From Pseudomonadota bacterium (GTDB taxonomy: Bacteria > Pseudomonadota > Gammaproteobacteria > Steroidobacterales > Steroidobacteraceae): DNA of 64,000 nucleotides. The notes beneath the pieces were generated by a model, which was not told the origin of the DNA, made no database searches, and worked only from the letters and a program-made list of their open reading frames with translations. The translations under genes and the position numbers were made by a program. Of the stretch, positions 1,583 through 53,233 are shown piece by piece. The stretch is from contig JBDTPN010000007.1 of the NCBI GenBank assembly GCA_039932715.1, positions 19,503 through 83,502 of the forward strand, given 5' to 3'. Numbering within the stretch: position 1 is the first letter of the stretch; the number at the start of each line of letters is the position of its first letter.

Positions 1583-1615
1583 GCAGTGGCACCCCGCCTG
1601 TGGTGAAGTCAGTGC

Positions 1616-3853: not shown

Positions 3854-3854
3854 T

Positions 3855-4253: not shown

Positions 4254-4315
4254 GAACGGACTCCGTGTGTCTGTGGCAATGGTGGCTGCGAAACCATGAA
4301 CGCGGGCTGAAGAGT

Positions 4316-6359: not shown

Positions 6360-6360
6360 T

Positions 6361-7134: not shown

Positions 7135-7152
7135 CCGGTAAGATCAGGGCGC

Positions 7153-8037: not shown

Positions 8038-8051
8038 ATCGCGCGATCAGC
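8033..8051. terminator. Imperfect palindrome between convergent genes (possible bidirectional terminator hairpin)
   Basis: gctgaatcgc/gcgat-cagc is a palindrome with one bulge. It straddles the LpxL-like stop (8035-8037) and is followed by a T-rich stretch (cttttccttta). There is no clean U-tract, so this is weak. Confidence 0.3.
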
Positions 8052-8063
8052 CAGGCTTTTCCT

Positions 8064-10034: not shown

Positions 10035-10036
10035 GG

Positions 10037-26757: not shown

Positions 26758-28683
26758 ATGTCGTCAGACTCGTCGGAACTCTTTGGACATAGCGCCAGAA
26801 ATTTTCCGCCGCAACACAATATCGTGGACATAACAGCCAACCCAAAGCGCGGGCGAAACAGACCATTCGCCGGGTTCATGCAGTCAATCGGGCTGGGGCC
26901 GGGCCGTGGCGGCGGAACCAGAAAATCCATCGACAGCCGCGCAATGGAAGTGACCTGTCGCCAGATCATCGAGCTGACCGGCGATGGCGTGCTGATCATC
27001 AGCACTGATGGCAAGCAGATATTGGATGCCAACACTGCCATCCAGAAACTCTCAGGCAAGAATATCGAGCAGTTGCGTACAGTGGCCCTGCAGGGCTTGT
27101 TCCAAATGGGCGAAGCGGCGGACCGCCTGGCCTTTGCACAATTGCTGATCGGTGGCGCAACCCTGACGGTCGAAGTGACGGTGTCCGTCCCTGAGGGCGA
27201 TCCGCGCGCTGTTGAAATCAGCCGGATCGAGGTCGACCTTCCCAACCGGCAAATGCTGGGGCTGGTGGTGCGCGACCTGAGCCTGCGCAAGAAAGCGGAA
27301 TCGAACCTGCTGGCCAAGCAGAAGCATCTTGATAAGCTGGCACACCACGACCAGCTGACCGGCCTGCCCAACCGCGTTTTCCTGCAGGCGCATCTGCCCA
27401 AGGCCATCGAGCGCGCCACCGCAGAAAAAACCCTGATGGGCGTGCTGTTCCTGGACCTGGACCGCTTCAAGCATGTCAACGATTCGCTGGGCCATGAGGT
27501 AGGCGACAAGCTGCTGCAGGAAATCGCCAAGCGCGTGCGCACGGCCGTACGCCCGGATGACGTAGTCGTGCGCATGGGCGGCGACGAGTTTGTGGTGCTG
27601 CTGCACAGCGCACGATCGTATGACGAGATCAACAGCGCGGCCAACCGCATCAACACGGTGCTGGGCAGTCCGGTGGTGATCGACGGCCGGGCAGTGGTGG
27701 CCACGGTCAGCATTGGTGTCAGTGTGTTTCCGCGCGACGGCGCCACCATGGGTGAGCTGCTCAAGCATTCGGATACCGCGATGTACCAGGCCAAGGATTC
27801 CGGCCGCAACAATTTCCAGGTCTTCAGTCCCAAGATGGACCAGCAGATCAAGCGGCGCGTGGCCATAGAGAGTGCGCTGCGCACGGCGTTGAAACTCGGT
27901 CAGCTCGAGGTGCACTACCAGCCGGTGATCGAGATTGCGACCAAGAAACTGGCGGGAATGGAAGCGCTGCTGCGCTGGAAACATCCCACTCAGGGCTACA
28001 TTGCGCCGGCCAGCTTCGTGGAAGTGGCCGAGGATTCGGGGCTGATCCTGCCTATCGGGCAATTCGTCCTGGATCGAGTCACTGACGACATCGCGGACTG
28101 GCGCAAGCGCAAGCGCAAGCTGGTGCCGATAGCGGTCAACATCTCGGCCGTGCAGCTGGAGCGCACCAAACTGCACGATGTCATTCGCACCGCGCTGGCA
28201 AAACACGACATCCCTCCGAATCTGCTGCAGCTGGAGCTCACCGAGAGCTCGCTATTTGAAAAGCGTACTGGTGAATTCCGCGGGGACGCGCTGGAAAGCC
28301 TGCGCGACCTGGGTGTTAAGATTGTCATCGACGATTTCGGCACCGGCTATTCCAGCTTGCAATATCTAAAGCGCTGGCATGTCGATGCGCTCAAGATCGA
28401 CCGCGGGTTCGTCGCCGACATTGTCACCGATCCATCGGACTTCGCCATCGTCAGTGCCATCATTGCAATGGCGCGCAGCCTCAAGATCCAGGTGGTCGCC
28501 GAAGGCATAGAAGGCTGGCAGCAGCTGGAGATGCTGCGTAGCATGGGGTGCCACATGGCACAGGGTTTCCTGTTTGCCGCACCGGTTCCCGCTGAACAGG
28601 CCATCCGGTTCCTCAAGGCCGATGATGCGGATGGCGCCGGCGAGCTGACCATGCTTTTGTCACTGGCCAATACCGGTACCTGA
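26758..28683 (+). CDS. PAS-GGDEF-EAL cyclic-di-GMP signalling protein
   Basis: PAS core (IIELTGDGVLIISTDGKQILDAN), GGDEF (RMGGDEFVVLL), EAL (EALLRWKHP, DDFGTGYSSL, QGFLF). The true start may be an internal ATG because the first ~40 codons are atypically AT-rich. Confidence 0.9.
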   Translation: MSSDSSELFGHSARNFPPQHNIVDITANPKRGRNRPFAGFMQSIGLGPGRGGGTRKSIDSRAMEVTCRQIIELTGDGVLIISTDGKQILDANTAIQKLSGKNIEQLRTVALQGLFQMGEAADRLAFAQLLIGGATLTVEVTVSVPEGDPRAVEISRIEVDLPNRQMLGLVVRDLSLRKKAESNLLAKQKHLDKLAHHDQLTGLPNRVFLQAHLPKAIERATAEKTLMGVLFLDLDRFKHVNDSLGHEVGDKLLQEIAKRVRTAVRPDDVVVRMGGDEFVVLLHSARSYDEINSAANRINTVLGSPVVIDGRAVVATVSIGVSVFPRDGATMGELLKHSDTAMYQAKDSGRNNFQVFSPKMDQQIKRRVAIESALRTALKLGQLEVHYQPVIEIATKKLAGMEALLRWKHPTQGYIAPASFVEVAEDSGLILPIGQFVLDRVTDDIADWRKRKRKLVPIAVNISAVQLERTKLHDVIRTALAKHDIPPNLLQLELTESSLFEKRTGEFRGDALESLRDLGVKIVIDDFGTGYSSLQYLKRWHVDALKIDRGFVADIVTDPSDFAIVSAIIAMARSLKIQVVAEGIEGWQQLEMLRSMGCHMAQGFLFAAPVPAEQAIRFLKADDADGAGELTMLLSLANTGT

Positions 28684-29313
28684 TTCCAGCATCTGCAGCG
28701 CATTGCCGGTCGCGCCGCTGCTGGCCGTGTTGTCGAATACGCACCAGGCGGTGGTGCCGCGCGGCAGGGCCTTGAGTTCCCGTGCCCACTGCGCCAGGCG
28801 CTTGCGTTCGTATGTAGACCAGTACTTTCTTGGCGAGCCGTGCAGGCGGTAGTAGACGAGTCCATGCCAGCCACCCGGCAGCGCAGCGGCGGGCACAACC
28901 ACCGGATCTGCAGCAATCCGCGCGATTTTGTAGCGCCGTAGCAGCGCATCGGCGCGCGCATCGAACCAGCTGGGATGCCGTGGCTCACAGGCCACGGGCC
29001 CGGCATGCAGTTGGCGCAGCAGTGCGAAAAACGTGCGTGCGATGCGGGGTTCAAAGGCCAGCGAGGGTGGCAGTTGCACAACCAGCGGGCCCAGCCGTCG
29101 GCCCAGTCCGGTGACGCCGTCGAGGAATTCCTGCAGCGGCCGGCGCGCAGCGCGCAGGCGCTGAGCATGGGTGATTTGTCGCGGCAGTTTCACCGAGAAA
29201 CGGAAAGCGCGTGGTGTCTGGCTTGCCCAGCGCGCATAAGTGGTGCGCGCATGATTGCGATAGAAGGACGAGTTGATCTCCACGCCACGCAGCACTTGTG
29301 CATAGCGCCGCAA
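28660..29313 (-). CDS. DUF72 (UPF0759, YecE-like) protein; the conserved N-terminus extends to about 29388
   Basis: VEINSSFYR, FRFSVKLPRQITH and the rest are collinear with DUF72. The first canonical start is TTG 29313. The family N-terminus ([22 protein letters not shown]) is encoded in frame upstream, from a CTG at 29388 that overlaps the lhr TGA. Confidence 0.85.
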   Translation of the reverse strand: MRRYAQVLRGVEINSSFYRNHARTTYARWASQTPRAFRFSVKLPRQITHAQRLRAARRPLQEFLDGVTGLGRRLGPLVVQLPPSLAFEPRIARTFFALLRQLHAGPVACEPRHPSWFDARADALLRRYKIARIAADPVVVPAAALPGGWHGLVYYRLHGSPRKYWSTYERKRLAQWARELKALPRGTTAWCVFDNTASSGATGNALQMLESGTGIGQ

Positions 29314-29384: not shown

Positions 29385-32300
29385 TCAGAGGCCTACTACC
29401 CTGTCTGTGCCAGACTTATTCCTGTGACGCAGCAGCGCGGTGCGTAACTGCCATTCCTCACCCTGCGCAACGGCCTCGAGAAACTGCGTCTGCCCGGCTA
29501 CGTAAATGGCCAGCGGCACGCCATCGCGCAGCAGCAAGCGGTTTCCCGCCAGGGCAGCCAGCCTTGCACCGGGGGTCACGATACCCAGCAGATTGAGCGG
29601 GTCCGCTGCGCTCAGTGAAACCAGAAGGCCCTGCTTGTCACGCCGGCGCACCGCACGCAGCGCGGCCACCGCGTCTGGCAAGGCGTATTGCTCGCCACTG
29701 CTATTGGCTACGAACCGGCCGCCACGGATCTGTCCCTGCGCCTCGAGCCGGCGATAGACGCGCAGCAGCAGGTGCCACGGCGGCAGCCACTGCGACTCCC
29801 GGGTCAGCAGCTTGCGAAACACCACCCCATAGCGGCGCAGCAACAGCCATGCAATGGACTCCAGTTGCTCGGGTTGCAGCTGGCCTGCGGCCGCATCAGC
29901 AGTAGTGTGCAATGGACGTATCAGGCTCCAGCGACCGGCCTCTTCGAGGCCATGCAATGCCAGCCGCCTGCCACGGGCGGCAAGCTTGCGCCGGCGTTCC
30001 AGGGGCAACAGCAGGGCGCGCAGCCCGCCAAAGCTGTCGGCAGTGGCAAGTCCCGCGGCAACCAGTTCCCCCAGTGCACCCTCGGCCTGCGAGTGCAGTA
30101 ATCGCGTGCCGCCAAGCATCTCGTTGAAGAACGACGCGCCCTGGGCCTGCAGGTATTGCGCCAGCGCTTGTGCGTTGGCAGACAGCTTCGTGATTTCCCC
30201 TTGGGGCGACAGTTCGCGCCACATGGTGGAATGCTGCCGACGCAACAGGGCTATAGGGGTGGCGCGCACCGGTCCGGTGGTGGCATTGCGCGGCGGATCC
30301 AGGCGTGTCCAAAGCGTGCGGCCCGAGAGGCAAAGGCTGTCGAGCCACGCGGCGTCGTACGCGCCCATGCGCGCGGGCAACACGTCGGCCTCCCACGCCA
30401 CTGCTGGCACCTCAAAGCCTTCGAGCTGCTCGATAATCGCAGCAAGACTGGCCACTCCTTCGGGTCGTGGCTGAGTTGTGATCCCCTGCCAGTCGAGCAG
30501 GAAGCGCATGAAATCCGCGGACGCCACAGGCTCGATCTCGGCGCGCAAGGTGCGGATGGTATAGCGGTGGATGCGGGCCAGCAGGCGGCGCTCACACCAT
30601 TCAGTGTCGTTTGACTCGTGGCTGAATTGCCCGCGCAGCACAAACCCTTCGCTTTCCAGCTGCAGCAGTGCGGCGTCGAGCATCCCCACAGGCAGGGACA
30701 GCGTGGCAGCCAGGGCCACTGCGGTCACCGGGCCCATGGCCTGCAGGCGACCGCGCACCAGCTCGGTACAGGCCACCTCGGGTGACCATGCGCGCGCGGC
30801 GTAGGGGGCAGGAACCAAGGACAGCGGCGCTACGCTGGCCTGCGTGTACAGCACCCCCAGCATGTGCAACTGCTCCACGGCCACCCAGTAGCTGCCGGTC
30901 GTAGTCAACAGCCGCGCAGCGCGTCGCTCCCGCACCAGTGCTTCAAACCATTGCTGCCATGGCGGCTCTTCCGCCATCACCCCCAGCAGCATCAGCGCGT
31001 CATGCAGTTCATCGGGATTTTCGACATTGGGCCAGGCTTCTGCGCGCACCTGTGCGATGGCAATCGGATCAAGCTTGCCAAATTCCGCGGCAGTCTGCGG
31101 ATCCAGCCAGCGCCGCGACGCCACTGCCTGGGTGCGGCGCTCTTCCAGCGGCGCATCGTCAAGATAGGCATAAGGGCGAGCGCCCAGGATCTCCATGGCC
31201 AGTGGCGATGGATGTGGCAGGTCACGCGTGAGCACACGCCGCTGCCCCGACTCGATTGACTGCAGCAATGCAATCAGGCCGTCCACATCCATGGCCTCGT
31301 GCAGGCAATCGTGCAGTGTCTGCTGCACCAGCGGATGCTCCGGCACCTGGCGCTCACCGCGCAGGTTCTCGGCGCAGGCCAGCTGGTCAGGAAAAATCAC
31401 CGAGAGCAGATCCTCGGACGCCATGCGCAGCAGTGGCGGCGCCACCTTCTTGCCCGCGCGCGAAGTCCTCACTGCCAGCGATACCGTGGCGTTCCAGCGC
31501 CAGCGGGTGGCAAACAGCGGCGCATCGAGCACGGCCTGTGTCAGCACCTGCTCGACGGTGCGACTATTGAGATAACGCGGCACGTCGTCGAGCGCGAAGC
31601 TGTGGGTTTCACCCAGGGACAGGACAATCGCATCTTCAGTGGCAGCGGCCTGCAATTCGAAATTGAAGGTCTGGCAGAAGCGCTTGCGCAGCGCCAGTCC
31701 CAGCGCCCGGTTGATGCGCGCCCCGAAGGGCACGTGCAGCACCAGTTGCATGCCGCCGCCCTCATCGAAGAAGCGCTCGATGACCAGCAGCTGCTGCGTT
31801 GGCAGACTGCCCAGGGCGGCCTTGGCGGCTGCAAGATATTCGACGATCTGTCGCGCGGCGGTCGCATCGAGGCCGTGTCGCTGCATAGTGATGCCAATGG
31901 CGCCCTCGATGGTGTCGGGATCTACATCCGGCAGCGCGGCGTCGATTTCTGCGCGCAGTGACGAGACTGCCACGGACAATTCATTGCTGCGCGCAGGGGC
32001 TTCACCCAGCCAGAACGGAATGGTTGGCGGCTGCCCTGCAGCATCCTCGACGCGCACGCGACCGGCCTCCACCCGCAGGATCCGGTATGAGGTGTTGCCC
32101 AGCTGGAAGATGTCGCCCGCCAGGCTCTCGACTGCGAAGTCCTCATTGAGCGTTCCAACGAAAATCCCCGCCGGTTCGAGGACTACCTGGTAGTCCGCAT
32201 TTGCCGGGATGGCGCCGCCACAGGTCAACGCAGTGAGGCGCGCGCCGCGCCGCGCGCGTAAACGATGATTGACCGTATCGCGATGCAGATAGGCGCTCTG

Positions 32301-33692
32301 CTGGCCGCGACGTGAGGCGTATCCCTCCGCCAGCATGCGCAGCACCGCGTCATAATTATCTTGGTGCAAATCTCGATAAGGCCATGCGCGGCGCAGCAGC
32401 GCCAGCAGTTCGCCTTCGTCATACTCGCGCGCACTGACTTCCGCGACGATTTGTTGGGCGAGGACGTCAAGCGGCCTGACAGGAATATGCAGCCGGTCCA
32501 GTTCGCCGGCACGCACGGCGTCCAGCAACGCGGTGCATTCGATCAACTCGTCGCGACTCAGGGGGAAGAGCCGGCCCTTGGGCACGCCTCCCACCGCATG
32601 GTTGGCGCGACCCACGCGCTGCAGGAAGGTGGAAATCGCGCGCGGCGTCGCCAGCTGACACACCAGTTCCACGTCCCCGATGTCGATTCCCAGTTCCAGC
32701 GAGGCGGTGGCCACCAGTGCGCGCAGCGTCCCGGCCTTGAGGCGCTGTTCTGCATCCAGTCGCTGTTCGCGTGACAGGCTGCCGTGGTGCGCCGCCACGT
32801 TTTCCGCGCCGATGCGTTCGCTCAGGTTTCGCGTGACCCGTTCAACCATGCGCCGGGTATTGGCGAAGATCAGCGTGGTGTGGTGCTGACTGATCAGTGA
32901 TGCGATCTTGTCGTACAGCGTTTGCCATATCTCGTTGGACATCACCGCCTCAAGCGGCGAGTCGGGCAGCACCAGCGCCAGGTCGCGAACCCGGCTGTGG
33001 CCGCTGTCAACGACCACGCAGGCATCGGCTGCATCGGTGACGCCGACAAGGAAATGCGCAACTTCCTCGATGGGCTTCTGCGTGGCCGAGAGGCCTATGC
33101 GTTGCAGCCGCCGACCCGCCAGCGCGGCCAGGCGCTCCAGAGACAGCGCCAGATGCGAGCCGCGCTTGGTGCCGGCGACGGCATGTATCTCATCGACAAT
33201 GACACTGCGCGTGCTGGCCAGCATCGCGCGCCCGGACTCGCTGGTCAGCAGCAAGTAAAGGGATTCGGGCGTGGTCACGAGTATATGCGGCGGGGACTTG
33301 CGCATGGCCACGCGCTCGCCTTGCGGCGTGTCCCCGGTGCGCACCTGCGCGCGAATGGGTGTGGTCTGGATTCCCTGCGATCTGAGTTCCTCTTCAATGC
33401 CCCGCAGCGGGGCTTCCAGATTGCGCTGGATATCGTTGGACAAGGCCTTGAGGGGAGACACGTATACCACCTGCACCGCGTTCACCAGCGAACCACTGAC
33501 GGCTTCGCGTACCAGGCTGTCGATGGCTGCGAGGAATGCCGCCAGTGTCTTGCCCGATCCGGTGGGCGCGGCAATCAGGGTGTGACGACCCGCCTGTATG
33601 GGTGGCCACGCCGCGCGTTGCGGCGCGGTGGGCTCATTGAAGTTGCGGCTGAACCAACCCGCAACGGCAGGGTGAAAGTTGTGGAGCGCCAT
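29385..33692 (-). CDS. lhr: Lhr-family large ATP-dependent DNA/RNA helicase
   Basis: 1435 aa. Superfamily 2 motifs ([22 protein letters not shown]), followed by the long Lhr-type DEAD-associated/winged-helix C-terminal extension. Confidence 0.9.
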
Positions 33693-33761: not shown

Positions 33762-34187
33762 TCAGAGTCGGCGCAGCCGCTCCAGGTAGACCAGCTCATC
33801 CGGCGCACGACCGGCGCGCTGTGCTTCCCACAGCGTCTCCGCCAGCACATCGATCATGCGGTGCTCGACTTCATGGGCATCGCCAACACTGCGGTCCAGG
33901 CGCAGGTATTCCTGCTGGATGCCCATGGGCCGGTCCGTGCCCAGCTGTTCGCGCAGGGCCAGGTGCAGACCCATGTGCAGGAAGGGATTCACCTGACCGT
34001 GTTCAACCGTGAACGGCCGCGACAGTGACTCCTCATCCGCAAGCATTGCCTGGTATTCCGGGTGCAGCTCGATCACATCCGCGATCAGCGCATCCAGCGG
34101 TTCCAGGGGCAGTCTTTCCATGCGTCGCCGCCACGAGTCGAAATAGCGTTGCCGCAGTTCGTCCTTGCCGGAGTTGGCGAAGATCAA
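33762..34187 (-). CDS. DUF1841-family protein
   Basis: TTG start at 34187 (AGAGG 7 nt upstream) in a TTGA overlap with the nth stop. RQRYFDSWRRRMERLPLEPLDALIADVIELHPEY...NPFLHMGLHLALREQLGTDRP matches DUF1841 as I recall it. Confidence 0.7.
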   Translation of the reverse strand: MIFANSGKDELRQRYFDSWRRRMERLPLEPLDALIADVIELHPEYQAMLADEESLSRPFTVEHGQVNPFLHMGLHLALREQLGTDRPMGIQQEYLRLDRSVGDAHEVEHRMIDVLAETLWEAQRAGRAPDELVYLERLRRL

Positions 34188-34837
34188 GTTGTTACCTCTG
34201 TCAGCCCGGAGGTCTTTGGCCGGTACGCACACCAGGCGGCAATGCAGCACTCTGGACAGCGCGGCTTGCGGGCCACGCATACATGTCGTCCGTGCAATAT
34301 CAACCAATGATGCGCGTGTGGCAGGAATTCCTCTGGCGTCACCTTGAGCAGGCGCTGCTCCACGGCCAGTGGCGTGGCGCCCCGTGCCAGCCCGGTGCGA
34401 TTGGCGACGCGAAACACATGCGTGTCCACCGCGATGGTGGGTTCACCGAATGACACATTGAGCACCACATTCGCGGTTTTGCGGCCCACTCCAGGCAAGG
34501 CTTGTAGCGCCTCCCGATCATGGGGCACCGTGCCCCCATGGCGTTCGATGAGCAGGCGACACATCTCGATCACGTTCTTCGCCTTGGCGTTGAAGAGGCC
34601 AATGTGCCGAATGTACGGCGTCAGGCCGGTAACGCCAAGTTCCAATATGGATTGCGGGGTGCGAGCCTGCGCAAACAGGCGTCGCGTCGCGATATTGACG
34701 CTGCGATCCGTGGCCTGTGCCGAAAGGATGACCGCCACCAGCAGCTCGAATGGCGTGGCGAACGCAAGTTCGCTGCGCGGCGCGGGGTTGGCAGCGCGCA
34801 ACGCGCCGAAAATCGCCGCGACGCGCGCCGGGGTCAA
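34184..34837 (-). CDS. nth: Endonuclease III
   Basis: HhH-GPD motif (LPGVGRKTANVVL), catalytic VDTHVFRV, and a C-terminal 4Fe-4S cluster CX6CX2CX5C (CVARKPRCPECCIAAWC). TTG start in a TTGA overlap with the metG stop. Confidence 0.95.
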   Translation of the reverse strand: MTPARVAAIFGALRAANPAPRSELAFATPFELLVAVILSAQATDRSVNIATRRLFAQARTPQSILELGVTGLTPYIRHIGLFNAKAKNVIEMCRLLIERHGGTVPHDREALQALPGVGRKTANVVLNVSFGEPTIAVDTHVFRVANRTGLARGATPLAVEQRLLKVTPEEFLPHAHHWLILHGRHVCVARKPRCPECCIAAWCAYRPKTSGLTEVTT

Positions 34838-36816
34838 CTGATCTTCATGCCGGGCGTGACGCCCGCATCCGCCGACAACAGGAATACGCCGCTATCGTTG
34901 CCGCTGGCGCACAGCACCATTCCCTCGGAGACGCCGAAGCGCATCTTGCGCGGCGCGAGGTTGGCGATCATTACCACGTAGCGGCCTACTAGTGATTCAG
35001 GCGCGTAGCTGGCGCTGATGCCGGAGAACACATTGCGCTGCTCGGTGCCGAGGTCGAGCTTCAGCTGCAGCAGCTTGTCAGAACCGGCCACGCGTGTGGC
35101 CTCCAGCACCAGTGCGGCGCGCAGGTCGAGCTTGGCGAAGTCATCAATGCTGATCACGGGTTTTCCTGAGGTAACTGGCGTGGGCGCAGCGACGAGCTGC
35201 TTGACGATGACCGGGTCAAGTCGTGCAGCCAGCTGTGGATATTTTGCAATGGCTGCTCCCAGCAGCGGCTCGTCAACACTGTGCCACGCCTGCGAAGCGC
35301 TGCATCCCAGCCACTGCGCCGCATTGGCCGCAATGCCGGGCATCACGGGAGCCAGCCAGGTCATCAATACGCGAAACAGATTGATGCCCTGCGTGGCCAC
35401 CGCGCGCGCCTCATCCAGTCGCGCCGCATCCTTGGCAAGTACCCAGGGTTTCTGCTGGTCTACATACTGGTTGGCGCGATCAGCCAGCGCCATGATTTCG
35501 CGTATCGCACCTGCATAGTCGCGGGATTCATAAAGCGCAGCGATCGGCTCCGCGGCAGCGCTGAAGCTCTCGTAAAGGGCTGGATCAGGAAGCCGGTCCG
35601 CAAGTTTGCCGCCGCCGCGCTCGATGAACGGTGCGCAGCGGCTGGCGATATTGACCAGCTTGCCCACGATGTCCGAGTTCACGCGCGCGCAGAAATCCTC
35701 AAGGGTGAAATCGATGTCATCCAGGCCATTGCCCAGCTTGGCCGCAAAGTAATAGCGCAGGTGATCGGAAGGCAGCAGGTCGAGATAGCGGCGCGCGGTG
35801 ATGTTGGTGCCGCGTGACTTCGACATCTTCTGGCCGTCGACGGTGAGGAAGCCATGCACGTGAACACCGGTGGGACGCCGGAATCCTGACCCCTGCAGCA
35901 TGGCAGGCCAGAACAGGGTGTGGAAATAGCTGATGTCCTTGCCGATGAAATGATGCAGCTCGGTGGTGGCGCCGGCCTTCCAGTATTTGTCGAAATCCAG
36001 GCCGCGCGCGGCGGCCAGTGCCGCGAAACTGCCGATGTAGCCCACCGGTGCATCGAACCATACATAGAAGAACTTGCCCGGTGCATCCGGGATCTCGAAC
36101 CCGAAGTACGGTGCATCACGCGAGATGTCCCAGTCCTTGAGGCCGGTCTCCAGCCATTCGTCCAGCTTGGCGCGTACGGCAGTCTGCAGGCCTTTGCCCG
36201 CCAGCCACTCACGCAGATCCGCTTCGTAATCTCCCAGCTTGAAGAACAGGTGCTCGGAGTCGCGCAGCACCGGCTTCGTACCGGTGATAGTCGAAACTGC
36301 GTCCTTGAGATCTTCGGGGGAATAGGTTGCCCCGCAATTCTCGCAACTGTCGCCGTACTGGTCGGCCGTGCCGCAGCGCGGGCAGGTGCCGCGGACAAAG
36401 CGGTCGGGCAGGAACATGCCGGCCGTTTCATCATAAGCCTGGCGCACCACGCGCCGCGCTATGGAGCCGCGCTGGCGCAATGCCTCATACATCAGCGTGG
36501 AATAACGGCGGTTTTCCTCGCTGTGCGTGGAATGGAAATGATCGAATGCGATCTGGAAGCCGGCGTAGTCACGCTGGTGTTCGGTGGCGTATGCGGCCAC
36601 CAGCGCCTCGGGCGTGATGCCATCCTGGCGGGCGCGGATCATGATCGGTGTGCCATGGCAATCCTCGGCACAAACGTATAGGCATGCATTGCCACGCATA
36701 CGCTGGAAGCGACACCAGATATCGGTCTGCACTGCCTCGACGATATGACCGAGGTGCAGGGGGCCGTTGGCGTAGGGCAGGGCGCTGGTGACCAGTATCG
36801 TGCGGGGCTGACTCAA
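34834..36816 (-). CDS. metG: Methionine--tRNA ligase
   Basis: Collinear with E. coli MetG: ALPYANGPLHLGH, Zn knuckle CPRCG...CENCG, KMSKS, and a C-terminal tRNA-binding domain. TTG start (GAAGGA 6 nt upstream) overlaps the upstream TGA. Confidence 0.95.
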   Translation of the reverse strand: MSQPRTILVTSALPYANGPLHLGHIVEAVQTDIWCRFQRMRGNACLYVCAEDCHGTPIMIRARQDGITPEALVAAYATEHQRDYAGFQIAFDHFHSTHSEENRRYSTLMYEALRQRGSIARRVVRQAYDETAGMFLPDRFVRGTCPRCGTADQYGDSCENCGATYSPEDLKDAVSTITGTKPVLRDSEHLFFKLGDYEADLREWLAGKGLQTAVRAKLDEWLETGLKDWDISRDAPYFGFEIPDAPGKFFYVWFDAPVGYIGSFAALAAARGLDFDKYWKAGATTELHHFIGKDISYFHTLFWPAMLQGSGFRRPTGVHVHGFLTVDGQKMSKSRGTNITARRYLDLLPSDHLRYYFAAKLGNGLDDIDFTLEDFCARVNSDIVGKLVNIASRCAPFIERGGGKLADRLPDPALYESFSAAAEPIAALYESRDYAGAIREIMALADRANQYVDQQKPWVLAKDAARLDEARAVATQGINLFRVLMTWLAPVMPGIAANAAQWLGCSASQAWHSVDEPLLGAAIAKYPQLAARLDPVIVKQLVAAPTPVTSGKPVISIDDFAKLDLRAALVLEATRVAGSDKLLQLKLDLGTEQRNVFSGISASYAPESLVGRYVVMIANLAPRKMRFGVSEGMVLCASGNDSGVFLLSADAGVTPGMKIS

Positions 36817-37874
36817 GACTGGTCCTTCACCGCCTCGAACCGGCCCTTGCTGATGGCTTTCTTGTAGGCCTCCGAGCCGCTGATGATGCGCTGGTCGAGC
36901 AGCGCCTGGATGGAGCTGTCCATGGTGCGCATGCCGTTCTGCGCGCCGGACTGCATCGCGTTCTCCAGCTGGTCGAGCTTGCCCTGGCGGATCAGGTTGG
37001 CCGTGGCCGGTGTGTTGACCAGGATTTCCAGCGCTGCCACGCGTCCAGATTTGTCGGCCCGCTGCAGCAATTGCTGCGAGACCACGCCGCGCAGTGAAGT
37101 CGACAGCATGGTGCGCACATGCGACTGCTTGTCGGAGGGGAAGACGTTGATGATGCGATCGACCGTGGGCGCCGCGCCATTGGTATGCAGGGTGCCCATG
37201 ACGAGGATGCCCATTTCCGCGGCGGTCACGGCTATGCCGATGGTTTCAAGGTCGCGCATTTCGCCCACCAGCACCACATCGGGATCCTCACGCAGCGCCG
37301 AGTGCAACGCCGACGCGAAGTTGGGCGCGTGTACGCCGATCTCGCGCTGGCTGATGAGGCAGTTGCGGCGCTGATGCACAAATTCGATGGGATCCTCCAC
37401 CGTGAGGATGTGTCCTTTCTCGCGCTTGTTGATGTCATCGATCATGGCCGCCAGCGTCGTAGACTTGCCTGAACCGGTCTTGCCCGTGACCAGGATCAGC
37501 CCGTTGTTGGCGCGTGCCAGCGTGCGCACCGCTTCGGGCAGCTTCAGCTCGTCCATGGTCAGGGCCTTGGAGGGAATGGCGCGAAACACCGCGCCCAAAC
37601 CGTTGAGCTGTCGCAACACGTTGACGCGGAACCGGCCCAGGTCGCCCAGCGTGTAGGCGAAATCCGCGCCGTCATGCGCCTCGAGTCTCTGCTGGGCCTT
37701 CATGGGCATGATTTCAAACAGCAGCTGGCGCACGAATTCCGCAGGCAGGGTCTCCGGCCGTAGCGGAGTCAGGTCGCCATTCACGCGGATCCGGGCCGGA
37801 TCACCAGCGATAAAGTGCAGGTCTGACCCGCGTCGCTGCAGTACATCGTTGAGGTATGAATCGATCTCGGCCAC
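36813..37874 (-). CDS. PilT-family hexameric ATPase, copy B (variant His box)
   Basis: Walker A GKTGSGKSTT, Asp box TVEDPIEF, Walker B DPDVVLVGEMRD, and a His box that reads EMGILVMGTLHT. GTG start 6 nt after the copy A stop. Confidence 0.85.
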   Translation of the reverse strand: MAEIDSYLNDVLQRRGSDLHFIAGDPARIRVNGDLTPLRPETLPAEFVRQLLFEIMPMKAQQRLEAHDGADFAYTLGDLGRFRVNVLRQLNGLGAVFRAIPSKALTMDELKLPEAVRTLARANNGLILVTGKTGSGKSTTLAAMIDDINKREKGHILTVEDPIEFVHQRRNCLISQREIGVHAPNFASALHSALREDPDVVLVGEMRDLETIGIAVTAAEMGILVMGTLHTNGAAPTVDRIINVFPSDKQSHVRTMLSTSLRGVVSQQLLQRADKSGRVAALEILVNTPATANLIRQGKLDQLENAMQSGAQNGMRTMDSSIQALLDQRIISGSEAYKKAISKGRFEAVKDQS

Positions 37875-37880
37875 GGGCGA

Positions 37881-38981
37881 CTAACCTGATCCGGGTGCTG
37901 CGTCGAGCTTGGGAACCAGCGATGTATCGGTGACGAATTTCTGCAGCGCCTTTTTGTCCGTGGCGTAGAGATAGGCGTCGTCAGGATCGATCTCGCGCGC
38001 CTGGACTGCGGCCAGCAGCGCCTGGTCCAGCACCTGCATGCCGAACTCGCGGCCCATCAGCAGCTGGCTGGGTACCTGGTGTGTCTGGTCGGTCTGGATG
38101 AGTTTGGCAATCGCCTTGGTCATCACCATGACTTCGCAGATGGCCTTGCGACCCTGGCCGTCACCGGTCTTCACCAGCACCTGCGTGATCACTGCCAGCA
38201 GGCTCTGCGAGAGAAAGCTCTTGGTCTGTTCGCGCTCTTCTATAGGCAATGCGTCGATGATGCGATCGATGGTCTTGACCGCGCCGGTGGTATGCAGTGT
38301 GCCCAGCACCAGGTGGCCGGTCTCCGCCGCCGTCATGGCCATGGAGATGGTCTCGGCGTCGCGCATTTCTCCTACCAGTATCACGTCCGGGTCTTCGCGC
38401 ATTGCCGCGCGCAGGCCTTCGGCAAAACTGGGCAGGTGCGTGCCCAGTTCGCGCTGTATGACCTGGCAGGTCTTGCTGCGATGGACGAACTCAATGGGAT
38501 CCTCAAGGCTGATAATGTTGAGGCGCCTGGTGGTGTTGAGCAGGTCGATCATCGCGGCCAGCGTCGTCGACTTGCCGGACCCGGTGGCGCCCGTCACCAG
38601 GATCATTCCCTGGTGGTAGTCGCACAATTTCCTGACCACCGGCGGCAGGCCCAGCTTGTCGAGAGTGGGCACTTCAGTAGGGATGGCACGGAACACCGCG
38701 CCGATCCCGGAATCCTTGCGAAATACGTTGACGCGAAAGCGCCCGCCCTCGGAGGAGACATAGGAGAAGTCGGCGTCATGGCCCTGCGAGAAGCGGGCGG
38801 CCTGCGAAGTGGGGATGATTTCCGAGATATAGCCTTCGAGCTCGGTGTCGCGCAGGTCACGGAACTTGATGGGCAGCAGTTCGCCATACATGCGCAGCAT
38901 GGGTGGCACGCCCACGGCGAGGTGTATGTCCGAGCAGCCCTGCTGCGTGCCGAGCTTCAAGAATGCGTCAATGCGGGCCAT
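37881..38981 (-). CDS. PilT-family hexameric ATPase, copy A
   Basis: N-terminal GCSDIHLAVGVPPMLRMYGEL, Walker A GATGSGKSTT, SLEDPIEF, DPDVILVGEMRD, and a canonical His box ETGHLVLGTLHT. ATG 16 nt after the kinase stop. Confidence 0.85.
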   Translation of the reverse strand: MARIDAFLKLGTQQGCSDIHLAVGVPPMLRMYGELLPIKFRDLRDTELEGYISEIIPTSQAARFSQGHDADFSYVSSEGGRFRVNVFRKDSGIGAVFRAIPTEVPTLDKLGLPPVVRKLCDYHQGMILVTGATGSGKSTTLAAMIDLLNTTRRLNIISLEDPIEFVHRSKTCQVIQRELGTHLPSFAEGLRAAMREDPDVILVGEMRDAETISMAMTAAETGHLVLGTLHTTGAVKTIDRIIDALPIEEREQTKSFLSQSLLAVITQVLVKTGDGQGRKAICEVMVMTKAIAKLIQTDQTHQVPSQLLMGREFGMQVLDQALLAAVQAREIDPDDAYLYATDKKALQKFVTDTSLVPKLDAAPGSG

Positions 38982-38997
38982 GGAACGTTAGTCTACG

Positions 38998-41433
38998 TTA
39001 TGCGAAGCGTTCCAGCGCGACCCGCATTTCTTCCATGCTCTGGAAGCGCTTGGCCTTGTCGACGGCCATGGCCTTCATGATCAGGTCCGCCAGGCCGGTA
39101 GGCAGGTTGGGATTGATTTCCAGCGGCGGTCGGGCCTTGCCCTGGACATGCTGGTACATCACGGCCATGTGATCGCCACGCGAATACGGCGGCACGCCGG
39201 TGAACATCTCGTACATGATCACGCCGATGGCATAGACGTCCGCGCGTTCGTCCACCTTGCGGCCCAGGATTTGTTCCGGGGCCATGTATTTGGGCGACCC
39301 GATCACGTAGCCGGTCTTGGTCAGCTGCGTGTCGCCCTCGCGATGGGCGGCGGCCACGCCGAAATCCACGATCTTAAGCAGACCATCGGCGTTAATGAGA
39401 ATGTTGGCCGGCTTGAGGTCGCGATGCACGATGCCGACCTTGTGGGCCACCGTCATGCCCTTGCACATATCCATGCTGAAGCGCACCGCGCGTTTGGTCT
39501 CGACCGGTTTTTCGTTGACGACTTCCGCACCCAGCGTGTGGGACTGGAAATACTCCATCGAAATGGCGTAGTTGCCCTGAATATGCAGGAAGTCGTAGAT
39601 GCGGATGACGTTCTGGTGCGTGATTTTGCGCGAGTAGCGCAGCTCGTGCACGAACCGCTTCATCATCTCCTCGTCTTCTGAGACATTGGGGTTTAGGAAC
39701 TTGAGGATCAGGCGATCGTCCACCACCGTGTCTTCCATCAGCAGCACGGTGCCGAAGGCGCCCTTGCCGATCTTGTCGATGAACTTGTAGCGACCCTCGA
39801 TCATGTCGCCCTTCTTGAGGGTGCCTATGTCGAGCTTGATGGGCGTGCCCTGGTCGACCTGGCGCAGCATGGGCTTGAGCTCGGCCTCCTCCATCGGCAC
39901 AGGTCGTGAAGGCTCGCCGGCACGCGTGCCCGAGGCGCCTGCTGCGACGGTCTGGGAGCCACTTGCTGCGCCGCTGATCGACGGGCGCCCCGTGGCTTCG
40001 CCCGACATGCGCAGCGCCAGTTCCTTGAGGCCGGCCCCTGCAGCCTTGGCGATGGTTTCTTCCTGGCTCTGCGCCTGCGCCTGCAGTTGCAGGCGCACGT
40101 GTTCGGCACGTTTCTCGTCGCTGACGCGCGCCAGCGCCTGGATGACTTCAACGCGGATCTCTTTTTCGGCGCGCGACAGCAGCGGCAGCAGCAATTCCAC
40201 CTGGCGTGCATCGCCCAGCTTGCCGATGGCGTGCACCACAATAGGCAGCGAGCGGGCCGGCGTGTTCTGCAACATCTCGGTGAGGCGCGGCAATGCGCGC
40301 TTGCTGCCAATGTCGGCCAGCGCGTCCACGGCGCGCTCGCTGACCCACCAGTCCGGATCGCGGGTGGCATCAATCAGGCTGTTGACTGCGCGTTCATCCT
40401 TGGTCTGGTTGAGGATCTCGATGGCGGCGCGACGGATGTTGTCGTCCCGGTCGCGAACCAGTTCCAGCACCGCATCGATGACCTTGGGGCCGCCAATCTT
40501 GCCCAGCGCGTCGCCCGCGCGACTACGCACCCACCAGTCGTCGTCCTTGATGGCCTCCAGCAGGAACTTGACTGATTTGGGATCGCCGATCTCGTTGAGC
40601 ACTTCCACTGCCGCGCGGCGCGCAAACTCGTTTTCGTCCTTGAGCACATCGATCAGGTAACGGATGGTGTCCGGATCGTTGGCACGGATCAGCACGTCGA
40701 TGGCGCGATTCTGCACATCGATTTCGCTGTCACGCAGCAGCAGGCAGATGGCGGGAATATCCACCGGCCCTTCCATGCGCGACAGCGCAGCCAGCGCCGA
40801 CGAACGTATCATCCGGTTGTTGTCACGCAGCTGGGCGACCAGCGCCGCCTTGACCTCAGGCTTGCTGAAACGCGACAGGATATTGATGATGTGCATGCGC
40901 GCGATCGGGTCCTTGCCCTCGACGCGGCTGAGCAATTCAGGGATAGCGTTGGCGTCGGCGACTTCGCCCACCACGCGAAACAATGCGGCCTTCTCGCTTG
41001 GCTCCTGCGCATAGGCGGCGGTGAGCAGTTCGCGCACGTTGAACCGGTCACGCTGGGCATGGATGGCGTCCATCAGCGCCGATTTGGCCATGCCCTTGAC
41101 GCTCAGGGCATCCAGCAACAGTCCCGGTGCGTAGTTACGACTGCTGCTGAGCGCCCAGCCGATACCGGCGGCAATGCGCGGCCCGCCATCGCACAGGCCC
41201 TGCACGAACTGCGGGAAGGTCTTGTTGGACACCAGCGTGGACAGCACGTCCACCAGTGCCACCGTGGCATTCTTGTCGGCGTCGGCCAGGGCCTGGATGG
41301 TGGGATCAATGACCCCCGCGCCAAGGCTCTTGAGGGCGGCCACGGCCTTCAGTGTTTCGGCACCCAGAGGCTCGTTGCTCGACTTGATCTGGACGATCAG
41401 CCGGTCAGACCGCAGATTCGTGAAAAAACCCAT
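38998..41433 (-). CDS. HEAT-repeat (PBS-lyase type) protein with C-terminal Hanks-type Ser/Thr protein kinase domain
   Basis: About 480 aa of repeated D.D..VR..A...L..IGD..A HEAT-like units, then a low-complexity linker. The kinase carries GKGAFGTV, an invariant Lys (LILKF), HRDLKPANILI, DFGVA and GSPKYMAPE. Confidence 0.85.
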   Translation of the reverse strand: MGFFTNLRSDRLIVQIKSSNEPLGAETLKAVAALKSLGAGVIDPTIQALADADKNATVALVDVLSTLVSNKTFPQFVQGLCDGGPRIAAGIGWALSSSRNYAPGLLLDALSVKGMAKSALMDAIHAQRDRFNVRELLTAAYAQEPSEKAALFRVVGEVADANAIPELLSRVEGKDPIARMHIINILSRFSKPEVKAALVAQLRDNNRMIRSSALAALSRMEGPVDIPAICLLLRDSEIDVQNRAIDVLIRANDPDTIRYLIDVLKDENEFARRAAVEVLNEIGDPKSVKFLLEAIKDDDWWVRSRAGDALGKIGGPKVIDAVLELVRDRDDNIRRAAIEILNQTKDERAVNSLIDATRDPDWWVSERAVDALADIGSKRALPRLTEMLQNTPARSLPIVVHAIGKLGDARQVELLLPLLSRAEKEIRVEVIQALARVSDEKRAEHVRLQLQAQAQSQEETIAKAAGAGLKELALRMSGEATGRPSISGAASGSQTVAAGASGTRAGEPSRPVPMEEAELKPMLRQVDQGTPIKLDIGTLKKGDMIEGRYKFIDKIGKGAFGTVLLMEDTVVDDRLILKFLNPNVSEDEEMMKRFVHELRYSRKITHQNVIRIYDFLHIQGNYAISMEYFQSHTLGAEVVNEKPVETKRAVRFSMDMCKGMTVAHKVGIVHRDLKPANILINADGLLKIVDFGVAAAHREGDTQLTKTGYVIGSPKYMAPEQILGRKVDERADVYAIGVIMYEMFTGVPPYSRGDHMAVMYQHVQGKARPPLEINPNLPTGLADLIMKAMAVDKAKRFQSMEEMRVALERFA

Positions 41434-41539
41434 TACTGCATGTGGCCATTGGCTGTGCGTACAACCGTTAAATTATGCCATACGGGCCTCTGGCGACGCG
41501 TGAACCGTGTCGCTCGCTGCTAGAATCGGACCTCTTTTC

Positions 41540-42643
41540 ATGAGTGAACCTGTGGCACAAATGGCCGGAATCCGGGCTGCAATCGAGCAGTACCAGGACC
41601 CATGGATTGGACAGACGCTGGGCGCGTTGGGGGCCATCTCGTTTCTTGACGCAGATCACACCCAGATCAAGGCCGGCATCCGCCTGCCGGTGCCGGTAGG
41701 CGGCTATGAGGCGGAACTGGCTGCCGCCCTGGCAAACCACCTGCGCGCGGCCGGGTTTGCGCAAAGCCTTTCGCTGGACCTGCAAGCCGTCATCGTGGCC
41801 CATGCAGTGCAAAAACCGCTGAAGCCACTGCCTGGCATCCGCAATATCGTAGCCGTGGGCTCGGCCAAGGGTGGGGTGGGCAAGTCCACGGTGGCGGTCA
41901 ACCTGGCGCTGGCCTGGGCTGCCATGGGCGCAAAAGTGGGCATGCTGGACGCCGATATCTATGGGCCCAGCCAGCCCACCATGTTGGGCCTGGGCCGCCA
42001 GCGGCCAACCGCCATAGAAGACAAACGCATCCGTCCGCTGGAGGCATTCGGCGTCAAGGCCATGTCCATCGGGTTCCTCATTGATCCGGATCAGCCCGCA
42101 ATCTGGCGCGGGCCCATGGTGACCCAGGCGCTGACCCAGTTGCTGGGCGAGACCGAATGGGGAGATCTGGACTACCTGGTCATCGACATGCCGCCCGGAA
42201 CAGGTGACCTGCAGCTGACACTGGCGCAGCGCGTGCCCGTGGCCGGCGCGATTATCGTGACCACGCCGCAGGAAATCGCGGTGGCCGACGCGCGCAAGGG
42301 ATTGCGCATGTTCGAGAAGGTGCTGGTGCCGGTGCTGGGCATCGTCGAGAACATGAGCACGCATCACTGCACCAACTGTGGCCATGAGGACGCAATCTTC
42401 GGTACCGGTGGGGGTGAAGCCCTGGCCGCCGAATCCGGCACGCGACTGCTGGGCAGGTTGCCCCTGGACACACGCATCCGCATCGAGGCTGACGCCGGCA
42501 CGCCGTCGGTAGTGGCCGCGGCCGACTCGCCGCGCGGCATTGCCTATCGCGACCTGGCGCGTCATGCCGCCGGCGCGCTGGCATGCCGCCCCCGTGATCG
42601 CAGTTCCGCGTTTCCTGAAATCGTCGTCGAGAGAGCTTCATGA
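41540..42643 (+). CDS. apbC: Iron-sulfur cluster carrier ATPase (Mrp/NBP35 family)
   Basis: Start at ATG 41540. Deviant Walker [12 protein letters not shown] and the CXXC cluster-binding motif (HHCTNCGH). Divergent from the metG operon, as in E. coli. Confidence 0.9.
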
Positions 42644-51887: not shown

Positions 51888-52352
51888 TTATTGGGGCTTT
51901 GCCGGCTCCGGCTTTGCAGGTTCCGGTTCGTGGATCTGTGTCACGCCGGTAAACAAGGCGCTGCCGTCGGCCAGCTTGATGGACCGTGCGTACGCGATAG
52001 TGGGGAAGTTTCTTGCGCGCGCGCCGTTGACCGTGACGTGGTCGCCGGGTTTGAGCGAATCGCGTTTCCATCCGCGGCGCATCAGTGTGTTGGGGCTGGG
52101 CAATTCAAAATTCCAGTTTTCGGTCTTGCCCTGGGCATTGACTACATCGACATAGAGCCTGGCATGCGGGCTCTTCCATTCCAGAACAGTGACCTTGCCC
52201 TCGACATCCACGTTCATCTTGAAGTCGAATTCCGACTGCGAGTGATGCGCCCACGCCTCCGGCGCTCGCGCCAGCGCCAGCGCCAGGGTAATGCCGGCAA
52301 CAAACAGCAGGCGCGAAAACACAGTTGGCATATTGCGGTTACCTCGGCTCAC
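51888..52352 (-). CDS. Secreted small beta-rich protein, DUF6152-like
   Basis: Signal peptide (FVAGITLALALARA) followed directly by AHHSQSEFD...VTVLEWKSPHARLYVDV...WNFELPSPNTLMRRGW...LKPGDHVTV, the pattern I associate with DUF6152. GTG 52352 overlaps the upstream stop. An alternative ATG is at 52331. Confidence 0.6.
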   Translation of the reverse strand: MSRGNRNMPTVFSRLLFVAGITLALALARAPEAWAHHSQSEFDFKMNVDVEGKVTVLEWKSPHARLYVDVVNAQGKTENWNFELPSPNTLMRRGWKRDSLKPGDHVTVNGARARNFPTIAYARSIKLADGSALFTGVTQIHEPEPAKPEPAKPQ

Positions 52353-53203
52353 TTGTAGAGCTTCACGTCCTGCTCATCGTCTAGGCAGATCTCCTCGAGC
52401 ATCTGCGTGTCCACCTGTATGGCCATCTCCACGGTGACCGACCAGGGACGGGTGTAGGCCTTGGGATCATTCACCGCGATCTCCACCTGCATGACGCCGA
52501 AGTTGAGGCGCTTGAGGCGCTCGGTGACACGCGCTGATTCGGTCACGGGGCTACCCTGAATATCGAGCCACATGTCGTCGCGGATCCCATTGGTCTCGAT
52601 CACCAGCGTGTCTGCGTCCCAGTGTCCAGTGGAGTAACCATTCCACGTCGGATTGGGGTTTTCCGGCAGCGGCCGGCCGTCGAGGTAAACCTCACGATAG
52701 GCAGCATTGAACTCGTGCAGCATCACCAGTTCACCGGGCGTCTGCACCAGTCTGATGTACTGCGGCAGTGTCCAGGCGCGCGGGAAATTCGGCGGCTTGC
52801 AATAGGTATGCGGATCTTCCCTGCCGTGATTTGCGCGCCGCGCAACCATCTGCTGCTTTGACCATTCGGTGTAGGGCAGGCCGTCCTTGAGCTTGATGCC
52901 CAGGTTGATCTGTTCGCGCGCCATGCGTTCTTCCTGGATGCAGTCCTGCCCCTTGCAGGCATCCTTCGATGGCACATTGGCAAACCACATGCCGGACAAA
53001 TCCGGCTTGCCGTCAGGCGTGCGCGGCGTCGCGGCCTTGAGATCCGGCGCACCGTCGCCAGTGCGCGGTATGCCGGGCGTGGGATAACCCAGCCATTGCG
53101 CCGGGGCCAGCAGGGGAGTTGCAGTCAGCATGACCAGTGCCAGCACGCACCAGGCGGTCCGCAAGGACTTTCGGTGGCAAAAAATGCAGCAGATGGTTGC
53201 CAT
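52349..53203 (-). CDS. Secreted protein of unknown function
   Basis: Start at ATG 53203. A hydrophobic signal-like segment (WCVLALVMLTATPLLAPA) is followed by a coherent GC3-rich coding frame of 284 aa. I recognise no family. It is coupled (GTGA) to the DUF6152-like gene. Confidence 0.6.
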   Translation of the reverse strand: MATICCIFCHRKSLRTAWCVLALVMLTATPLLAPAQWLGYPTPGIPRTGDGAPDLKAATPRTPDGKPDLSGMWFANVPSKDACKGQDCIQEERMAREQINLGIKLKDGLPYTEWSKQQMVARRANHGREDPHTYCKPPNFPRAWTLPQYIRLVQTPGELVMLHEFNAAYREVYLDGRPLPENPNPTWNGYSTGHWDADTLVIETNGIRDDMWLDIQGSPVTESARVTERLKRLNFGVMQVEIAVNDPKAYTRPWSVTVEMAIQVDTQMLEEICLDDEQDVKLYK

Positions 53204-53233
53204 GGTCGGTCGGGAGCATAGCAAAATAGGGCC

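Follow-up and report, generated by a model that had tools for sequence, protein, structure and literature searches.

In a 64,000-nucleotide stretch of a Steroidobacteraceae genome (contig JBDTPN010000007.1 of assembly GCA_039932715.1, hereafter the window), the gene for a HEAT-repeat Hanks-type Ser/Thr kinase is followed directly by the genes for two PilT-like ATPases, which we call A and B. Our analysis indicates that this trio is very probably a dedicated, conserved module and not a product of chance adjacency. The protein families are known; the new part is the strictly conserved regulatory architecture, and searches of the full-text literature turned up no account of a HEAT-repeat protein or Hanks kinase linked to a PilT pair. 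The first-pass annotation of the window had proposed a kinase-regulated pair of PilT-like motors, and the data below strongly support the view that the kinase and the two ATPases are one functional unit.

Co-occurrence of the kinase and the two ATPases

We searched 50%-identity representatives for relatives of the kinase and obtained ~40 collinear kinases of ~800 residues (27–67% identity), which fall into at least 14 clusters. Named members of the family came from Ectothiorhodospira, several gammaproteobacterial metagenome-assembled genomes (MAGs), Kaarinaea lacus, Candidatus Methylomirabilis, and Candidatus Tectomicrobia. Five of these loci were read: one each from Methylomirabilis (L084), a gammaproteobacterial MAG (L085), and Kaarinaea (L086), and two from cluster 1 (L087 and L088), whose kinases are 35–38% identical to the window kinase. 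At all five, the kinase gene directly precedes T2SSE ATPase genes coding for ~366 and ~355 residues; at the Kaarinaea locus, only the first is seen before the contig ends. Two further Steroidobacteraceae genomes (79 and 68% kinase identity) share the same gene order, with dcd-apbC divergent from kinase-A-B-metG.

A metagenome scan with an alignment of the HEAT domain only yielded 80 diverse loci, which were annotated with local hidden Markov models (HMMs). Counted on these metagenome contigs, which are not phylogenetically independent, the next gene after the kinase is A in all 53 loci (53/53) whose contig continues for 400 bp or more beyond the kinase gene, and A followed by B is found in all 39 (39/39) that continue for 1600 bp or more. 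Both order and adjacency also hold in 8/8 database loci. The sources of the loci include Gammaproteobacteria and Candidatus Methylomirabilis. The control set consisted of unrelated Hanks kinases, namely the 78 of 80 genome-scan loci that were recovered by generic HRDLKPxN and DFG patterns, and only one of these 78 had a T2SSE-type ATPase within 8 kb. The genes of the trio are tightly packed (median gaps of 8 nt between kinase and A and 7 nt between A and B), with stop and start codons often overlapping. Moreover, when each of the three proteins is compared with its counterpart in the window, the identities co-vary across 43 loci (Spearman 0.90–0.94). It is the invariant order, the tiny gaps, and this covariation that support a single functional unit. 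The co-occurrence raised by the first-pass annotation as a point to be checked is thus borne out, as the trio recurs in ~90 related loci from several phyla.

The family does not extend to every HEAT-kinase of ~800 residues. In the remotest clusters (27–34% identity; L089 and L090), the kinase gene lies between clpB and bolA, and no ATPase genes accompany it; these kinases (L089, 7001–9505; L090, 7001–9415) form a subfamily with only faint HEAT matches. Therefore, we rejected a family definition that takes in all such kinases. The clpB/bolA subfamily, devoid of PilT-like genes, reveals that the kinase architecture also exists outside the ATPase module.

Relationship of A and B to canonical PilT and PilU

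Both ATPases match the PilT/PilU family model TIGR01420 over model positions 2–342, with 423 bits for A and 437 bits for B against a cut-off of 319. The best Protein Data Bank (PDB) match of each is Pseudomonas aeruginosa PilT (322 bits for A and 330 bits for B), and PilU (PDB entry 9N32) ranks under all PilTs (250 and 267 bits, respectively). As a calibration, P. aeruginosa PilT scores 365–369 bits against the Aquifex and Geobacter PilTs and 266 bits against PilU. A and B are therefore further from P. aeruginosa PilT than are the PilTs of other phyla. In pairwise identity, A and B share 49–53% with the PilTs of P. aeruginosa and Xanthomonas, 38–40% with Xanthomonas PilU, and 46% with each other. 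The PilTs of Acinetobacter, Xanthomonas, Aeromonas, Legionella, and Neisseria are 66–84% identical to P. aeruginosa PilT.

In two neighbor-joining trees, which include a small sample of reference sequences, A and B formed separate clades with bootstrap supports of 87–99 and 53–100%, respectively. The topologies of the two clades are congruent, placing cluster 1 first, then Methylomirabilis together with the gammaproteobacterial MAG, and then the Steroidobacteraceae. Neither protein groups with canonical gammaproteobacterial PilT or with PilU, whether judged by the trees or by identity. The gene order also differs from that of pilT-pilU, in that the longer protein (A) is encoded first and not second. 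On these comparisons, A and B are two ancient, co-inherited PilT-family lineages, neither of which is canonical PilT or PilU. Descent from a PilT-like ancestor is likely; orthology to canonical PilT is not supported.

These data bear on the simplest alternative, according to which A and B are the PilT and PilU equivalents of this lineage, evolved fast and serving as its sole retraction ATPases, and the kinase is either a lineage-specific regulator or an unrelated neighbor. Such an origin would fit the TIGR01420 scores and the NCBI and JGI annotations, in which A and B are named PilT or PilT/PilU; in addition, a tandem pair is the usual pilT-pilU layout (PMC6762196), and the window contains no further PilT-family gene. 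It fits poorly with the identities given above, which set A and B at a distance from gammaproteobacterial PilT that canonical PilTs do not show among themselves, and at a still lower identity to PilU. It is also opposed by the presence of the same A/B pair with its kinase in unrelated phyla, and the link in 39 of 39 loci means that the kinase is no incidental neighbor. We consider this explanation unlikely. A phylogeny of both ATPases, which the first-pass annotation had seen as the way to recognize simple PilT and PilU orthologs next to a non-conserved kinase, instead returned two clades apart from gammaproteobacterial PilT and PilU, and the kinase adjacency proved to be conserved.

Sequence signatures of the two ATPases

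Judged by their motifs, A and B look catalytically competent, with intact elements for ATP binding and hydrolysis. A contains a Walker A motif GATGSGKST (Lys-137), an Asp box EDPIEFVH, a Walker B motif DVILVGEMRD, and an intact His box, ETGHLVLGTLHT. B contains a Walker A motif GKTGSGKST (Lys-137), an intact Asp box and Walker B motif, and a variant His box. The Walker A lysine, the Asp box, the Walker B glutamate, and the histidine that contacts the γ-phosphate are present in A, B, and their aligned orthologs.

Column counts for the Walker A motif and the His box covered 57 sequences of A and 45 of B. All 57 A sequences have the first His-box histidine (ETGHLV), whereas the same position in B is occupied by isoleucine (42/45) or valine (3/45) and never by histidine (0/45); the second histidine is retained in B. 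In P. aeruginosa PilT, the H222A substitution reduced twitching and slowed retraction, and H229A abolished twitching (PMC10187167); His-229 is the histidine that contacts the γ-phosphate (bioRxiv 10.1101/672212). A second signature lies at the C-terminal end of A, where a linear motif with the consensus F-x-[RK]-[FY]-V-T-[DN]-x-x-[LVM]-L-P is found across phyla and is lacking in PilT and B. We infer that this tail is a candidate docking or phospho-acceptor site.

The conserved C-terminal motif of canonical PilT, AIRNLIRE, is intact in five reference PilTs (P. aeruginosa, Xanthomonas, Geobacter, Aquifex, and Manganitrophus). The last of these, which served as a PilT reference only, is encoded on a Candidatus Manganitrophus plasmid (L173; CP114559.1). 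Positions 1–7038 of that locus hold a type IV pilus-like cluster adjoining conjugation genes, with prepilins, two GspE/T2SS ATPases, a GspF-like protein, and the PilT with an intact AIRNMIRE.

The HEAT-repeat kinase

From its sequence, the kinase is a soluble protein in which every catalytic residue is present. Pfam and TIGR01420 agree with the domain calls of the first-pass annotation, which had described HEAT repeats, a complete C-terminal kinase, and two PilT-family ATPases. HEAT_2 matches in four stretches (E = 8e-55, 184 bits, cut-off 27.7) and HEAT_PBS with 61 bits (cut-off 20.9), whereas Pkinase (PF00069) covers residues 549–801 with 172 bits (cut-off 31.7). The catalytic motifs are GKGAFGTV (556–563), HRDLKPANI (670–678), DFG (690–692), and SPKYMAPE (713–720, with the APE at 718–720), to which Lys-578, Glu-597, Asn-677, and the activation-loop threonines 702, 705, and 707 can be added. 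In 50 homologs, Gly-556, Gly-558, Gly-561, Lys-578, Glu-597, His-670–Arg-671–Asp-672, Asn-677, Asp-690–Phe-691–Gly-692, and Pro-719–Glu-720 are invariant, and so is Thr-705 of the activation loop. The kinase is of the RD type, and activation-loop phosphorylation is therefore to be expected, as established for RD kinases in general.

Conservation is not confined to the catalytic domain. Two DWWV motifs in the solenoid (residues 299–302 and 361–364) are invariant in the same 50 homologs, and the invariant solenoid columns include Trp-300, Trp-301, Val-302, Trp-363, and Val-364. More than 120 full-length homologs were found at 68–93% identity; the best-conserved regions are the HEAT block at 271–390 and the kinase domain. 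The activation-loop block (691–720) is 99% conserved, and the linker (481–540) is the least conserved part, with 21–47% column identity.

The AlphaFold2 model of the kinase has an overall predicted local distance difference test score (pLDDT) of 85. Its solenoid is all-helical, mostly with pLDDT values of 85–95, and the values fall below 50 across residues 480–531. In a Foldseek search, the full-length model gave matches to the kinase domain only, none covering the HEAT domain; the best were Stk1, PknB, and PknA (template modeling scores of 0.82–0.90 and 31–34% identity). No transmembrane segment was detected in the protein, whose maximum KD19 hydropathy of 1.48 lies within the kinase core. 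Assignment as a PASTA kinase (NF033483) was rejected, as that model reaches 275 bits against a cut-off of 450 and covers the kinase domain only, and there is no hydrophobic segment.

Two classes of loci

The loci of the family fall into two classes. Class II comprises the window, L001, L002, L005, and the metagenome loci that lack a small gene upstream of the kinase; its kinases are 45–79% identical to the window kinase. The arrangement of dcd-apbC divergent from kinase-A-B is found at all 32 class II metagenome loci with enough upstream sequence, and metG follows B wherever the contig extends far enough. All informative class II loci share one chromosomal position, down to 45% kinase identity, which indicates that the trio entered the apbC/metG junction once, long ago, and has since been inherited vertically.

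Class I loci, with kinases 35–45% identical to the window kinase, are richer in accessory genes. Directly before the kinase gene, 35 of 69 loci encode a conserved small protein of 153–166 residues. It is 53–58% identical between Candidatus Methylomirabilis and Gammaproteobacteria, has a borderline C-terminal DUF6812 match as its sole Pfam match, and looks like two β-rich repeats. An FHA protein is encoded after B in 12 of 33 class I-type loci; other neighbors are a PP2C phosphatase, an FHA-GAF-HD protein, FHA-EAL or HD-PP2C fusions, and PAS and GAF signaling proteins. By guilt by association, these partners fit a reversible Ser/Thr phosphorylation circuit, possibly with a link to cyclic di-GMP (c-di-GMP).

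Upstream of the two cluster 1 kinases lie genes for small FHA proteins with a hydrophobic C-terminal segment (L087, 6431–6991; L088, 6261–6872). This segment is probably membrane-spanning and could tether the module to the membrane. The window itself encodes two GGDEF-EAL proteins, at 12253–14922 (+), with additional PAS domains, and at 26758–28683 (+). Neither is adjacent to the trio; we record the pair in view of the FHA-fused EAL and HD enzymes of class I loci.

Organization of the locus in the window

The coordinates, sizes, strand, and junction gaps given for the three genes in the first-pass annotation all held when compared with the sequence (Table 1). Between the kinase stop codon and the ATG of A there are 16 nt, and the stop codon of A is followed after 6 nt by the GTG that starts B. 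B and metG overlap, with the TGA stop and the TTG start read as TTGA, for which reason metG is probably co-transcribed with B and the rest of the trio. By this arrangement, kinase-A-B is a three-gene operon-like unit that runs on into metG in this lineage. The flanking genes apbC, metG, nth, and the DUF1841 gene were identified with Pfam and curated HMMs. In Escherichia coli K-12, mrp and metG are direct divergent neighbors, as the first-pass annotation had stated, and lie 131 bp apart; the trio thus occupies the apbC/metG junction.

That annotation had also described metG as coupled to nth and to the DUF1841 gene. The first part stands, with a 4-nt overlap between metG and nth. Translational coupling of the DUF1841 gene with nth is doubtful. 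Its longest open reading frame (ORF; 33762–34307, minus strand, 181 residues, TTG start) overlaps nth by 124 nt, but the true start probably lies further downstream, because Pfam recognizes DUF1841 only from residue 48 onward and the ortholog in L001 has 141 residues. Directly downstream of the DUF1841 gene, a Lhr-type large helicase of 1435 residues is encoded at 29385–33692 (−).

In the 73-bp gap between the kinase and apbC, where we presume a promoter, no match to the σ70 consensus was found. Four terminator-like sites were predicted in the scanned region, a number that shuffled sequence also yields. None falls within the trio on the minus (coding) strand, and the only minus-strand site is weak and lies inside metG. 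Rfam and tRNA scans detected no RNA family and no tRNA near the trio, and its overall GC content is free of anomaly. Third-position GC is 0.81–0.83 in the trio genes compared with 0.69–0.79 in the other listed ORFs of the window.

Table 1. Features of the kinase-ATPase locus (window positions unless a locus is named)
Feature	Position	Strand	Evidence or remark
HEAT-repeat Hanks-type Ser/Thr kinase, 811 residues	38998..41433	-	ORF; Pfam HEAT_2 (four matches) and Pkinase
HEAT solenoid, residues 1-480, ~30 helices, ~15 repeats	39994..41433	-	AlphaFold2; HEAT_PBS and HEAT_2 matches
Disordered Ala/Gly/Ser/Pro-rich linker, residues 481-531	39841..39993	-	pLDDT <50; composition
Kinase domain, residues 532-811	39001..39840	-	Pkinase E = 3e-50; catalytic motifs
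PilT-like ATPase A, 366 residues	37881..38981	-	ORF; TIGR01420 423 bits
A-specific C-terminal linear motif FVTDTSLVPKLD, residues 349-360	37902..37937	-	Conserved across phyla
PilT-like ATPase B, 353 residues	36813..37874	-	ORF; TIGR01420 437 bits
B His box EMGILVMGTLHT, residues 220-231	37182..37217	-	Ile223 replaces the first His; His230 kept
apbC (mrp), divergent upstream neighbor of the kinase	41507..42643	+	NF008669 390 bits
metG, downstream of B	34834..36816	-	NF001100 860 bits
Kinase/apbC divergent intergenic region, 73 bp	41434..41506	.	Presumed promoter region
Class I small protein	L084 6481-6942; L085 6459-6959; L086 6464-6946; ~35 metagenome loci among L091-L166

Comparison with known systems

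The closest known arrangement is the PilT-PilU pair of type IVa pilus retraction ATPases in P. aeruginosa, Vibrio cholerae, and Xanthomonas, which likewise consists of two adjacent genes for hexameric PilT-family ATPases above the TIGR01420 cut-off and shares with A and B the Walker A motif, Asp box, Walker B motif, and His box. PilU works only together with PilT (PMC6762196), which provides a precedent for a two-motor unit. The trio differs in its obligatory HEAT-kinase gene before the pair, a gene that canonical pilT-pilU does not have; A and B differ in their degenerate AIRNLIRE motifs, in the loss of the first His-box histidine from B, and in the C-terminal motif peculiar to A.

Extra PilT paralogs, such as MXAN_6705 and MXAN_6706 of Myxococcus xanthus, PilT2 of Neisseria gonorrhoeae, and PilT1–4 of Geobacter, resemble A and B in being additional to the main motor. 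Compared by description only, they differ from the trio in that no kinase linkage has been reported for them. MXAN_6705 and MXAN_6706 are adjacent and conserved across an order, and deletion of MXAN_6706 causes a partial S-motility defect (bioRxiv 10.64898/2026.05.11.724270). The gene contexts of Geobacter PilT1–4 are unlike that of the trio (PMC5065972). Among the Myxococcales kinase loci that we retrieved, none contained an ATPase gene.

The proposed kinase control of an ATPase-driven machine has a parallel in the H1 type VI secretion system (T6SS) of P. aeruginosa, in which a Hanks kinase (PpkA), a PP2C phosphatase (PppA), and an FHA protein (Fha1) are encoded beside the machine, much as in class I loci. 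PpkA sits in the membrane and has a periplasmic domain, and the T6SS ATPase is ClpV, of the AAA+ type. The trio, in contrast, combines a PilT-family ATPase with a soluble HEAT kinase, and the window lacks FHA and PP2C genes.

The window kinase shares its catalytic fold and all catalytic residues with the PknB and Stk1 kinases and differs from them in having neither PASTA domains nor a transmembrane helix, and in carrying its kinase domain at the C-terminal end, behind the 480-residue HEAT solenoid. In repeat type, and in its HEAT_PBS and HEAT_2 matches, it resembles the PBS-lyase-type proteins CpcE/F and NblB. Unlike these, it scores far under the cut-offs of the lyase and NblB models, has no phycobilisome context, and uses its repeats as the N-terminal domain of a kinase.

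Possible function of the module

What the module does can be approached through the family to which its ATPases belong. To our knowledge, every characterized member of the PilT/PilU family acts on a type IV pilus-like machine, and because A and B score above the cut-off of this family, a link to pili is favored. A pilus-linked output is further supported by the extra PilT paralogs of other bacteria that modulate pilus-dependent motility, such as MXAN_6706. We see about an even chance that the output is pilus retraction, with A and B as a phosphorylation-gated PilT-type motor pair that acts on type IV pilus machinery encoded elsewhere.

Under this model, the kinase, A, and B would be made together by co-translation and would form a complex, in which the HEAT solenoid would offer a docking surface, perhaps to the FxRFVTDxxLLP motif at the C-terminal end of A. 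Phosphorylation of the activation-loop threonines would activate the kinase, which in turn would phosphorylate the ATPases or associated proteins and in this way turn the two motors on or off. Their target would be the PilC-type platform of the pilus machine, whose retraction they would tune, and B, devoid of the first His-box histidine, may be the slower or auxiliary partner.

Several observations weigh against the retraction model. The docking role given to the HEAT domain and the A tail is conjecture. The FHA, PP2C, and small-protein partners of class I loci do not occur in the window. The two trees disagree on the deep order of PilT, A, and B, which shifts with method and outgroup. A and B both carry degenerate versions of AIRNLIRE (AIAKLIQT and ATANLIRQ, respectively). 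Finally, pilus genes are missing from the surroundings. Among 47 ORFs of the window, Pfam detected no pilin, PilB/PilC, PilM–Q, or secretin gene, and a motif scan of the same 64 kb found no prepilin leader and no third T2SSE ATPase, in accordance with the first-pass annotation, which had noted the absence of pilus genes. Within 6–10 kb of the ~90 family loci, we likewise found no pilus structural gene, prepilin motif, or assembly ATPase. Canonical pilT-pilU is also distant from the pilus structural genes, being located next to yggS-proC in Xanthomonas, for example, so their absence from 64 kb is weak evidence.

The last two observations would suit a module that is independent of pili, a cytoplasmic signaling or remodeling machine in which the kinase and two PilT-fold hexamers handle a non-pilus substrate. 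Apart from the degenerate AIRNLIRE motifs and the fact that the module never adjoins pilus genes in ~90 loci, such a role would accord with the class II setting among housekeeping genes (dcd-apbC and metG-nth), co-oriented with metG, and with accessory genes that belong to signaling (FHA, PP2C, HD, EAL, PAS, and GAF) and not to pili. Geobacter PilT1, moreover, is co-transcribed with recA, and a non-retraction role related to DNA uptake was proposed for it (PMC5065972). Yet A and B lie well above the family cut-off over their full length, the unlinked position of canonical pilT-pilU deprives the missing neighbors of much of their force, and no example is known of a PilT/PilU-family protein that acts without a PilC-like platform. 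We therefore regard pilus independence as doubtful. A specific form of it, to which we assign a similarly low probability, is a self-contained, phosphorylation-gated motor complex in which the A tail anchors a double hexamer of A and B, mixed or stacked, to the HEAT solenoid. Such a complex would serve some other process or act as a signaling device that is read out elsewhere by FHA-fused enzymes of the c-di-GMP type.

That the trio is a mobile anti-phage defense or conflict system inserted between apbC and metG is extremely improbable: the kinase domain does match the PD-T4-6, MADS6, and PglW kinase models at the domain level, and the trio does occupy a junction that is uninterrupted in E. 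coli, but the ATPases have no meaningful PADLOC match (P-loop-level hits only, E > 1e-8), the position is fixed in all informative class II loci, none of 1023 plasmid matches has full coverage, no GC anomaly, tRNA, or RNA element accompanies the genes, and the protein sequences are highly conserved. A defense island and a plasmid-borne element were accordingly rejected on the PADLOC, synteny, and plasmid searches. The retraction model remains the one that we prefer.

Other features of the window

Some further genes of the window deserve mention. At 4316–11398 lies an unusual envelope or lipid cluster on mixed strands, with genes for a PMT_2 glycosyltransferase, a LAB_N protein, a lipid A acyltransferase-like protein of 515 residues, a cytochrome P450, and a 656-residue protein that combines an AMP-binding domain with a phosphopantetheine carrier. 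Two DUF72 genes are present (28660–29313 and 53677–54387), and an ORF of 344 residues at 52349–53383 (−) has gene-like codon usage and no Pfam match.

Biological significance

PilT-family ATPases are among the strongest molecular motors known. The trio offers a genetic handle on how such motors are switched and on what the many extra PilT paralogs do, since a single soluble Ser/Thr kinase dedicated to the module invariably accompanies two ATPase lineages that can be recognized by diagnostic signatures, the loss of the first His-box histidine in B and the C-terminal linear motif of A. If the kinase gates the motors, type IV pili would be subject to a new level of control in bacteria that abound in soil and sediment, among them Steroidobacteraceae, Methylomirabilis, and many uncultured Gammaproteobacteria. 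Should A and B operate independently of pili, they would define a new function of the PilT fold that is conserved from Gammaproteobacteria to Methylomirabilota. The three-gene version found in the window is the simplest form in which either idea can be tested.

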